From a virus (lineage: Duplodnaviria; Heunggongvirae; Uroviricota; Caudoviricetes): a stretch of 4,791 nt of DNA. A program made the translations under genes and the position numbers. The stretch lies in the IMG/VR virus record IMGVR_UViG_2737471846_000007. One strand, given 5' to 3'. Below the pieces are notes generated by a model that was given only the letters and a program-made list of their open reading frames with translations, made no database searches and was not told where the DNA came from. Shown in pieces: positions 4,138 to 4,332 of this stretch (the first letter of the stretch is position 1; every line of letters begins with the position of its first letter).

Positions 4138-4154
4138 CTGTTCATATCCTCATA

Positions 4155-4184
4155 GATAAAAAATCGCCCTCACACTGGAGGGCA
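4155..4184 (-). terminator. Intrinsic terminator-like hairpin immediately upstream of ea10 (minus-strand RNA GCCCUC-CAGUGU-GAGGGC, extendable to 8 bp, then UUUUUU)
   Basis: Seen directly: plus 4165-4182 gccctcacactggagggc is a perfect 6-bp GC-rich inverted repeat; plus-strand A-run 4156-4161 provides the U-tract on the minus-strand transcript. Confidence 0.5.
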
Positions 4185-4245
4185 AAGAAGATTTCCAATA
4201 ATCAGAACAAGTTGGCTCCTGTTTAGTTACGAGCGACATTGCTCC

Positions 4246-4273
4246 GTGTATTCACTCGTTGGAATGAATACAC
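4246..4273. repeat. Perfect 9-bp inverted repeat GTGTATTCA-N10-TGAATACAC in the intergenic spacer
   Basis: Seen directly at 4246-4254 and 4265-4273, with the spacer at 4255-4264; lies between two terminator-like hairpins in non-coding sequence. Confidence 0.6.
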
Positions 4274-4301
4274 AGTGCAGTGTTTATTCTGTTGTTTATG
4301 C

Positions 4302-4328
4302 TAAAAATAAAGGCCGACTATGCGGCCT
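4302..4328 (-). terminator. Intrinsic terminator directly after the 149-aa membrane-protein gene (minus-strand RNA AGGCCG-CAUAGU-CGGCCU then UUAUUUUUAG)
   Basis: Seen directly: plus 4311-4328 aggccgactatgcggcct is a perfect 6-bp GC-rich inverted repeat beginning 5 nt after the TAA stop (4335-4333); plus-strand A-rich run 4302-4310 gives the U-tract. Confidence 0.6.
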
Positions 4329-4332
4329 GAAA

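Follow-up and report, generated by a model that had tools for sequence, protein, structure and literature searches.

In the viral DNA stretch of 4,791 nt held as IMG/VR record IMGVR_UViG_2737471846_000007 (the whole of it is called the window below), a 195-bp spacer (4332–4138) separates the stop codon of a 149-amino-acid open reading frame (ORF) for a predicted membrane protein from the ATG of ea10 at 4137. All genes of the window lie on the minus strand and form part of the leftward early (pL) operon of a lambdoid prophage; the host of the prophage is E. coli and the operon transcript crosses the window from right to left. Our analysis indicated that the spacer is, in all likelihood, the lambdoid locus of the small RNA (sRNA) PreS, also named LPR1. 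The core of this feature, PreS together with the terminator tL2a, is already known; the covarying hairpin of its putative precursor and the P22-type relatives may be modest new details, which the published PreS paper may already cover.

An initial annotation of the spacer had marked two terminator-like hairpins, (i) directly after the membrane-protein gene and (ii) in front of the ribosome binding site (RBS) of ea10, with a perfect palindrome between them. All three elements were found where they had been placed and each folded far better than its shuffles, the entire spacer reaching −61.4 kcal/mol (z −5.16).

Sequence identity of the spacer with the lambda PreS locus

Silverman, Nashef, Bruner, Noy and Melamed applied RIL-seq (RNA interaction by ligation and sequencing) to lambda infection and found LPR1, renamed PreS, between ea10 and ral (bioRxiv 10.1101/2024.10.31.621285). 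The RNA was strongly enriched on Hfq, gave a northern band of ~88 nt and a stronger processed band of ~68 nt, was present in the lytic but not in the lysogenic cycle, and had its 3′ end equated with tL2a (bioRxiv 10.1101/2024.10.31.621285). Its single-stranded seed pairs with the dnaA-3′/dnaN leader and opens the RBS of dnaN, the gene of the host DNA clamp (sliding clamp), so that translation increases; PreS also represses alaS, and both effects were backed by compensatory mutations (bioRxiv 10.1101/2024.10.31.621285). Deletion of PreS or of its seed lowered phage DNA and plaque yield 2–4-fold in an Hfq-dependent manner; the homologues presented in the preprint all shared at least 92% identity, and biogenesis was not discussed (bioRxiv 10.1101/2024.10.31.621285).

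The spacer from about 4321 to 4138 was ~98% identical to the lambda ral–ea10 spacer (NC_001416, 33905–34086), window position 4137 corresponding to lambda 33904. The homology with lambda begins inside or at the 3′ arm of hairpin (i); in lambda the stop codon of ral stands at this point. LPR1 starts with GAGCAATGTCGCTCGTAACT and finishes with ...GAGGGCGATTTTTTA according to the oligonucleotides of Table S5 (bioRxiv 10.1101/2024.10.31.621285). These ends, GAGCAATGTCGCTCG...GGGCGATTTTTTA, fixed by the authors' cloning, T7 and deletion oligonucleotides, were mapped onto the window at 4244 and 4157, giving on the minus strand an 88-nt PreS (4244–4157; GAGCAAUGUCGCUCG...GAGGGCGAUUUUUUA). It matched lambda PreS at 87 of 88 bases without gaps; seed and terminator were identical, and the sole difference was a G→A change at 4213, in the loop of an inner hairpin (H3, below) and outside the seed. 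Thus the window copy lies within the bounds that the authors set for LPR1 similarity (at least 92% identity and at most 3 gaps). It directly precedes ea10 in the pL operon, in sense orientation, and finishes in a GC-rich hairpin with a poly-U stretch, the Hfq-type terminator tL2a (4185–4158).

The positions on which the lambda genetics was done are preserved as well. The seed deletion takes out TGTTCTGATTATTGGAA, mutation M1 converts CTG to GAC, and a mutation M2 was also defined (bioRxiv 10.1101/2024.10.31.621285). On the window the deleted seed core falls at 4209–4193, the M1 triplet CUG at 4205–4203 and the alaS-pairing positions 42–56 at 4203–4189, and the whole of 4209–4189 is the same as in lambda. 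The complete seed region (4209–4184, minus strand; UGUUCUGAUUAUUGGAAAUCUUCUUU) is likewise lambda-identical and complementary to the dnaA-3′/dnaN leader. With the dnaN leader of E. coli (K-12), used for all pairing predictions, the window seed formed a duplex of 29 pairs with a ΔG of −29.7 kcal/mol versus −10.9 ± 2.6 for shuffled seeds, none of 1000 being as stable. The two loci therefore share the place upstream of ea10, the pL operon and strand, the seed, tL2a and the predicted dnaN pairing; they differ in the upstream neighbour, which is ral with a degraded terminator in lambda and the membrane-protein gene with a strong terminator in the window.

Hairpin (ii) is the pL-operon terminator tL2a and the 3′ terminator of PreS, and it is presumed to be the Hfq-binding module of the sRNA. 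It occupies 4185–4164 on the minus strand (stem 4185–4178/4171–4164; ΔG −12.9, z −3.88) and is followed by TTTTTT at 4163–4158, so that the second hairpin with a U-tract before the ea10 RBS was recognized correctly. The homologous site in the GenBank record of Sf6 is labelled 'terminator; homology to phage lambda; tL2A'. tL2a reportedly belongs to the lambda tL2 cluster of Luk and Szybalski (1983); the window sequence does not differ from that of lambda, in which the U-tract ends at ~33925, ~20 nt before the ea10 ATG, and the terminator now acquires a second role as sRNA 3′ terminator and presumed Hfq module.

Hairpin (i), on the other hand, is the terminator, predicted by the terminator scan and by folding, of the membrane-protein gene cassette and is located outside the sRNA. 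It runs from 4328 to 4311 on the minus strand (AGGCCG-CATAGT-CGGCCT; ΔG −9.7, z −3.55) and continues with TTTATTTTT at 4310–4302; as RNA, 4328–4302 forms the stem AGGCCG/CGGCCU with the U-tract UUUAUUUUU. Both hairpins have the attributes of intrinsic terminators (a stem rich in GC with 5 bp or more, a short loop and, directly after them, a U-tract on the transcribed strand), and they were among the best of the 13 terminator-like sites of the window, for which 4.3 ± 2.1 were expected. Hairpin (i) accompanies the membrane-protein gene in Sf6, Gally, HK633 and Oslo. Since phage Oslo has it together with the gene but without PreS, and since its lambda version is degraded (z +0.45) though lambda makes PreS, hairpin (i) does not belong to the sRNA. 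At the same spot the ral-type phages have another good stem, AAGGCUGCC-UGAU-GGUGGCCUU, with the ral stop codon in its loop; the stem of mEp234 is annotated as a predicted rho-independent terminator and 434 has still another stem. These alternative stems keep the same U-tract position.

The extent of the RNA had been drawn differently in the initial annotation, in which a transcript of 100–150 nt could be delimited by two terminators about 120 nt apart. The distance between the U-tract ends, at 4302 and 4158, is in fact 144 nt, and lambda-type phages conserve all of the interval as a single block, so an sRNA of ~145 nt, reaching from just after hairpin (i) to hairpin (ii) with its own start or between termination points, might be imagined, and a precursor of about such length could exist transiently. 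As the final product it is improbable. Terminators create no 5′ end, and no promoter-like site is available: the doubt already voiced about a sigma-70 promoter was borne out by a scan that found no minus-strand site anywhere in the window. Moreover, the northern bands measured ~88 and ~68 nt, the lambda hairpin (i) is degenerate, and the Min27-type Shiga toxin (Stx) phages lack hairpin (i) and the linker that follows it but keep the hairpin of the palindrome and PreS. A discrete minus-strand sRNA that ends at hairpin (ii) was rightly suspected, whereas the terminators as its two limits have to be given up; the characterized RNA is the one of ~88 nt (4244–4157), processed to ~68 nt.

Two small hairpins were predicted inside PreS. 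H2 (4244–4231, GAGC-AAUGUC-GCUC) stands at the very 5′ end and its 4 pairs never vary; it is part of the most invariant block of the family, the ~24 nt at the 5′ end of PreS (GAGCAAU.UCGCUCGUAAC.AAAC, 4244–4221, minus strand). Judged by its size, the ~68-nt form would imply a cut near 4225–4224 that removes most of this block. H3 (4223–4206) pairs AACAGG (4223–4218) with CUUGUU (4211–4206) and partly masks the seed at its 5′ edge; the P22-type counterpart is AACGAG/CUCGUU, and in the alignment the pair 74–87 is AU in 78 and GC in 17 copies, the pair 75–86 GU in 77 and AU in 16. The terminator stems also differ compensatorily (GCCCUC/GAGGGC versus GCCGCUC/GGGCGGC), a covariation left uncounted because the three terminator types stand in different registers of the MAFFT alignment.

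A 29-amino-acid ORF runs through the seed and the terminator on the minus strand, from an ATG at 4239 to a TGA at 4152–4150, with GGAG 2 nt upstream of the ATG and a stop codon overlapping the ea10 RBS. It is probably non-coding, and a peptide as the reason for the conservation is scarcely credible: the ATG is replaced by ATA in P22-type copies and by ATT in SF10, the Shine–Dalgarno spacing is too short, the sequence past the terminator varies among phages, and the nucleotide conservation fits RNA stems and a seed.

The palindrome as an RNA hairpin in front of PreS

The palindrome GTGTATTCA-N10-TGAATACAC was confirmed as a perfect 9/9 inverted repeat at exactly 4246–4273; we estimated that ~0.015 such repeats with a short loop would arise by chance per 195 bp. 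It lengthens to 22-nt arms (4236–4257/4262–4283) that are 82% complementary, and as minus-strand RNA it folds with −24.9 kcal/mol (z −6.16), none of 200 shuffles being as stable. The resulting hairpin, designated H1 (4274–4245, minus strand), consists of 13 bp, 4274–4262 pairing with 4257–4245 around a CAAC loop (4261–4258). In this lambda-type copy the stem reaches 4283/4236 with two mismatches, and the 3′ base of H1 abuts the first nucleotide of PreS.

For the covariation analysis proposed in the initial annotation, module copies were collected from IMG/VR, GTDB genomes and GenBank phages with the invariant anchor AGCAATNTCGCTCGTAAC, which yielded 145 copies, 95 of them distinct. In GTDB the anchor gave 43 matches, about half of them due to chance (~70 expected for 17 fixed bases); the remaining ones were of lambda type, several being probable lambda contamination, and no new diverged type appeared among them. 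H1 occurred in four unrelated sequence classes: class A in lambda (GUGUAUUCA/UGAAUACAC), class B in ST104 (UAAUGACCA/UGGUCAUUG), class C in P22 and ST64T (UAUAGCAGA/UCUGCUAUG) and class D in ES18 (UAAUGCGGA/UCCGCAUUG). All of them give stems of 11–14 bp with the 3′ base 0–2 nt from the conserved GAGCAAU.

Over the 95 distinct copies the stem was conserved despite the sequence change: 97.3% of the cells were paired, compared with 25–58% when the partner strand was slid, and 8 of the 13 pairs were altered on both sides. The covariation score was 0.323 versus at most 0.096 in the slid controls, and none of 500 shuffles equalled either the percentage paired or the score. RNAalifold, run on eight representatives, recovered H1 independently, plus H2 and H3. 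On its 5′ side H1 is directly preceded in every module type by (C)GAAUAAGCAC or AGAAUAAACACUGCAC; in the window these belong to an A/U-rich unstructured linker (4301–4275, minus strand) with a conserved AGAAUAA motif at 4290–4284.

The initial annotation had left it open whether the palindrome is an RNA stem or the site of a dimeric regulator. A perfect 9-bp dyad whose classes vary among phages, as operators do, and might match the specificities of phage or host regulators, would suit a DNA operator. H1 did not behave as an unbiased dyad, however. As Watson–Crick DNA it was 81.9% paired versus 97.3% as pL-sense RNA. G·U cells numbered 191 in the pL sense, A·C cells just 4, and the sense strand was the more stable one in every class except one single-copy variant. 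Both the G·U bias and the sense-strand stability speak for an RNA element within the pL transcript and against a DNA operator. Besides, the 3′ base of H1 stays 0–2 nt from the sRNA start in every class, and dyads with a centre of 4–5 nt in which pairing continues into the loop typify RNA stems. The operator is thus very improbable, and the RNA stem, kept in four unrelated classes, is the favoured form of the palindrome.

A nut site was also considered and rejected. The boxA-like CGCUCGUA at 4235–4228, in the invariant 5′ block, agrees with boxA (CGCUCUUA) in 7 of 8 positions, which is within chance (2.4 expected per window). Nut sites, composed of boxA and, 8–9 nt after it, a boxB stem of 5 bp with a GNRA-like pentaloop, share with this place a boxA-like element beside an RNA hairpin; here the hairpin comes first, which is the reversed order, and the H1 loops (CAAC, UUAAU or UACG) contain no boxB-like pentaloop.

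Judging by its position and covariation, H1 may be an element of a precursor in which it sets the 5′ end of the sRNA or insulates it. Polymerase that passes hairpin (i) would transcribe the linker, H1 and then the 88-nt PreS, ending at tL2a. PreS would have no promoter of its own and would be excised from the pL transcript, with H1 setting or insulating its 5′ end and possibly capping the 3′ end of the upstream mRNA too. The invariant 5′ ~20 nt might then direct the second cut, to the mature form of ~68 nt. A dependence of PreS on N antitermination would follow from hairpin (i) and whatever terminators lie before it, and such a dependence fits its lytic-only expression.

The nuclease could be RNase III, cleaving within the H1 stem to make the PreS 5′ end. 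RNase III is known to act at other places of lambda pL transcripts, namely the N leader and sib, the stem of the window and of lambda is long enough (~20 bp with two 1×1 mismatches, 4283–4236), and PreS +1 (4244) pairs at the bottom of a 14-bp perfect helix. We nevertheless regard this route as rather unlikely, although possible for the ~20-bp lambda-type H1: the stems of classes B, C and D have only 11 bp and the sRNA starts 1–2 nt outside them, the class-A copies of Stx phages lack the lower stem extension, and RNase E acting beside a structured element would fit all classes equally well.

Several points tell against this model for the prophage of the window. Its PreS is known from the sequence, whereas transcript, Hfq binding and lytic expression have been shown only for lambda, and the 5′ end at 4244 was taken from construct design and an approximate northern size rather than from a mapped end. 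The G→A change at 4213 costs one predicted peripheral dnaN pair (−40.2 versus −43.4 kcal/mol). Position and covariation are the sole grounds on which a role of H1 is proposed, and the four H1 classes go back to few independent evolutionary events. In HK022 the 5′ arm of H1 is gone, an IS903 transposase gene lies beside the module, and the PreS body and terminator are intact (locus L008, 705–868); this copy constitutes a natural H1-disruption variant. Finally, the antitermination checkpoint considered in the initial annotation would be ordinary lambda biology, in which N-modified polymerase reads through the tL2 cluster; such polymerase should also read through tL2a, the very site at which the 3′ end has to form during lytic growth.

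Spread of the module and its genomic setting

The block was ~95–98% identical in most of several hundred phage records, in which it stands between different flanking genes, and the homology between phages always stops right after the tL2a U-tract. GenBank records of Sf6 and HK542 label it 'bsq4 / boundary sequence 4'. In lambdoid and P22-like phages bsq4 denotes this very block, conserved at the mosaic joints between early-left gene cassettes. The label gave conservation without function; an sRNA gene with a putative precursor hairpin now accounts for the block. That it might be nothing else than a recombination boundary sequence with terminators and no RNA function was suggested by this annotation and by the mosaic breakpoints, which cluster at the edges of the block and even fall inside it. 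As the sole explanation it has hardly any probability left and is largely refuted by the lambda genetics, which showed a functional Hfq-bound sRNA with targets proven by compensatory mutation; the stems covary and dnaN complementarity is kept in diverged bodies. The roles of boundary and of PreS gene are compatible.

The P22-like Salmonella phages P22 (L175), ST104 (L009), ST64T (L176), SF10 (L177) and ES18 (L178) carry a diverged module, absent from the preprint, in front of gene 17 or the gene at that position. In the P22-type body the 5′ block is nearly invariant, an insertion of 13 nt widens the diverged seed, and compensatory changes mark the terminator stem. Lambda-, P22- and ST104-type bodies and hybrid ones were all predicted to form 29–36 pairs with positions −53 to −11 of the E. 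coli dnaN leader, with ΔG values of −30 to −36 kcal/mol versus −11 to −15 for shuffled seeds (0 of 1000). The complementarity kept in all body types supports dnaN targeting as a conserved function. It is possible, if still somewhat short of probable, that H1 is an obligatory part of the PreS precursor and that PreS is one branch of a family reaching P22, ST104, ST64T and ES18, in which a re-registered seed is still directed to dnaN.

H1 classes and body types have been recombined in several combinations. Two IMG/VR copies (L120 and L170) join a lambda-type 5′ seed to a P22-type 3′ seed and terminator, which points to recombination inside the sRNA gene. Almost lambda-identical ral–ea10 DNA was also encountered in assemblies of unrelated taxa, among them Pseudoxanthomonas, Lacrimispora, Neobacillus, Oceanobacillus, Kitasatospora, Arthrobacter and Pseudomonas (loci L012, L016, L019, L021, L026, L031, L033–L035, L037, L041, L042 and L049; several of the contigs are short and of low coverage), and is most likely lambda contamination.

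In the window the gene order from right to left is the membrane-protein ORF, the spacer, ea10, cIII, kil, gam, bet and exo, followed by a small ORF that, going by the lambda gene order, we take to be orf60a-like, a Dam-like methyltransferase and more small ORFs. The membrane-protein gene (4782–4333, minus strand) occupies the position of ral in lambda; its product of 149 amino acids belongs to phrog_3054, of unknown function, is a homologue of Sf6 gene 34 (gp34) and was assigned no Pfam family. It brings its own strong terminator and might be a moron or exclusion gene. The downstream gene ea10 (DUF2528; 4137–3769, minus strand) has its RBS, GAGGA, at ~4150–4146. The methyltransferase encoded at 872–1429 on the minus strand, distal to exo in the operon, is a Dam-type N6-adenine DNA methyltransferase (PF05869, 3e-56).

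Other terminator-like hairpins of the minus strand were seen at 3745–3726, 3395–3378, 1519–1497 and 559–541. The first of them, between ea10 and cIII, corresponds to lambda ~33493, which is presumably tL2b. In Gally and HK022 this hairpin comes directly after tL2a; ea10 thus resembles an insert between two terminators. The cIII thermoregulator (Rfam RF01804, 88.5 bits) was detected around the cIII start at 3709–3651 on the minus strand.

The right-hand 1.1 kb of the window, with ea10 and the spacer, was 100% identical to several E. coli chromosomes. Matches to at least a part of this segment were present in 2271 of 5426 complete E. coli genomes, and ea10 with the spacer occurred in up to 6 places per genome. 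Among the RefSeq E. coli matches listed, only protein-coding features and no ncRNA feature lay under the match. When the window and the loci of lambda, P22 and ST104 were scanned with Rfam 15, RF01804 was the only hit and no PreS model was present; a tRNA/tmRNA scan found none. The lack of an Rfam match and of ncRNA features under the listed matches indicates that annotation pipelines miss PreS.

PreS and comparable phage RNAs

The locus is very common in E. coli genomes, Shiga-toxin phages included, and the spacer shows that a reading of raw sequence can single out a genuine regulatory RNA locus, in this case very probably that of an sRNA which reprograms host replication. The covarying hairpin, the invariant 5′ block and the diverged P22-type bodies offer handles on the production of PreS and on the breadth of its targets. 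If the wider family is real, lambda would not be peculiar in activating the sliding clamp of its host: lambdoid and P22-like phages would have this as a conserved strategy.

A parallel is DicF of the lambdoid prophage Qin. Like PreS, it is prophage-encoded, Hfq-dependent and promoterless, is excised from a polycistronic transcript of an early operon and acts on essential host targets. The two RNAs have no sequence similarity, and DicF represses ftsZ whereas PreS activates dnaN. StxS and the lambda 6S RNA at tR′ resemble PreS in another respect, as their 3′ ends are formed by a terminator which the antiterminator otherwise overrides (bioRxiv 10.1101/2024.10.31.621285). Both of them begin at the promoter pR′, whereas PreS of lambda, ~1.5 kb inside the pL operon, has to obtain its 5′ end by processing.

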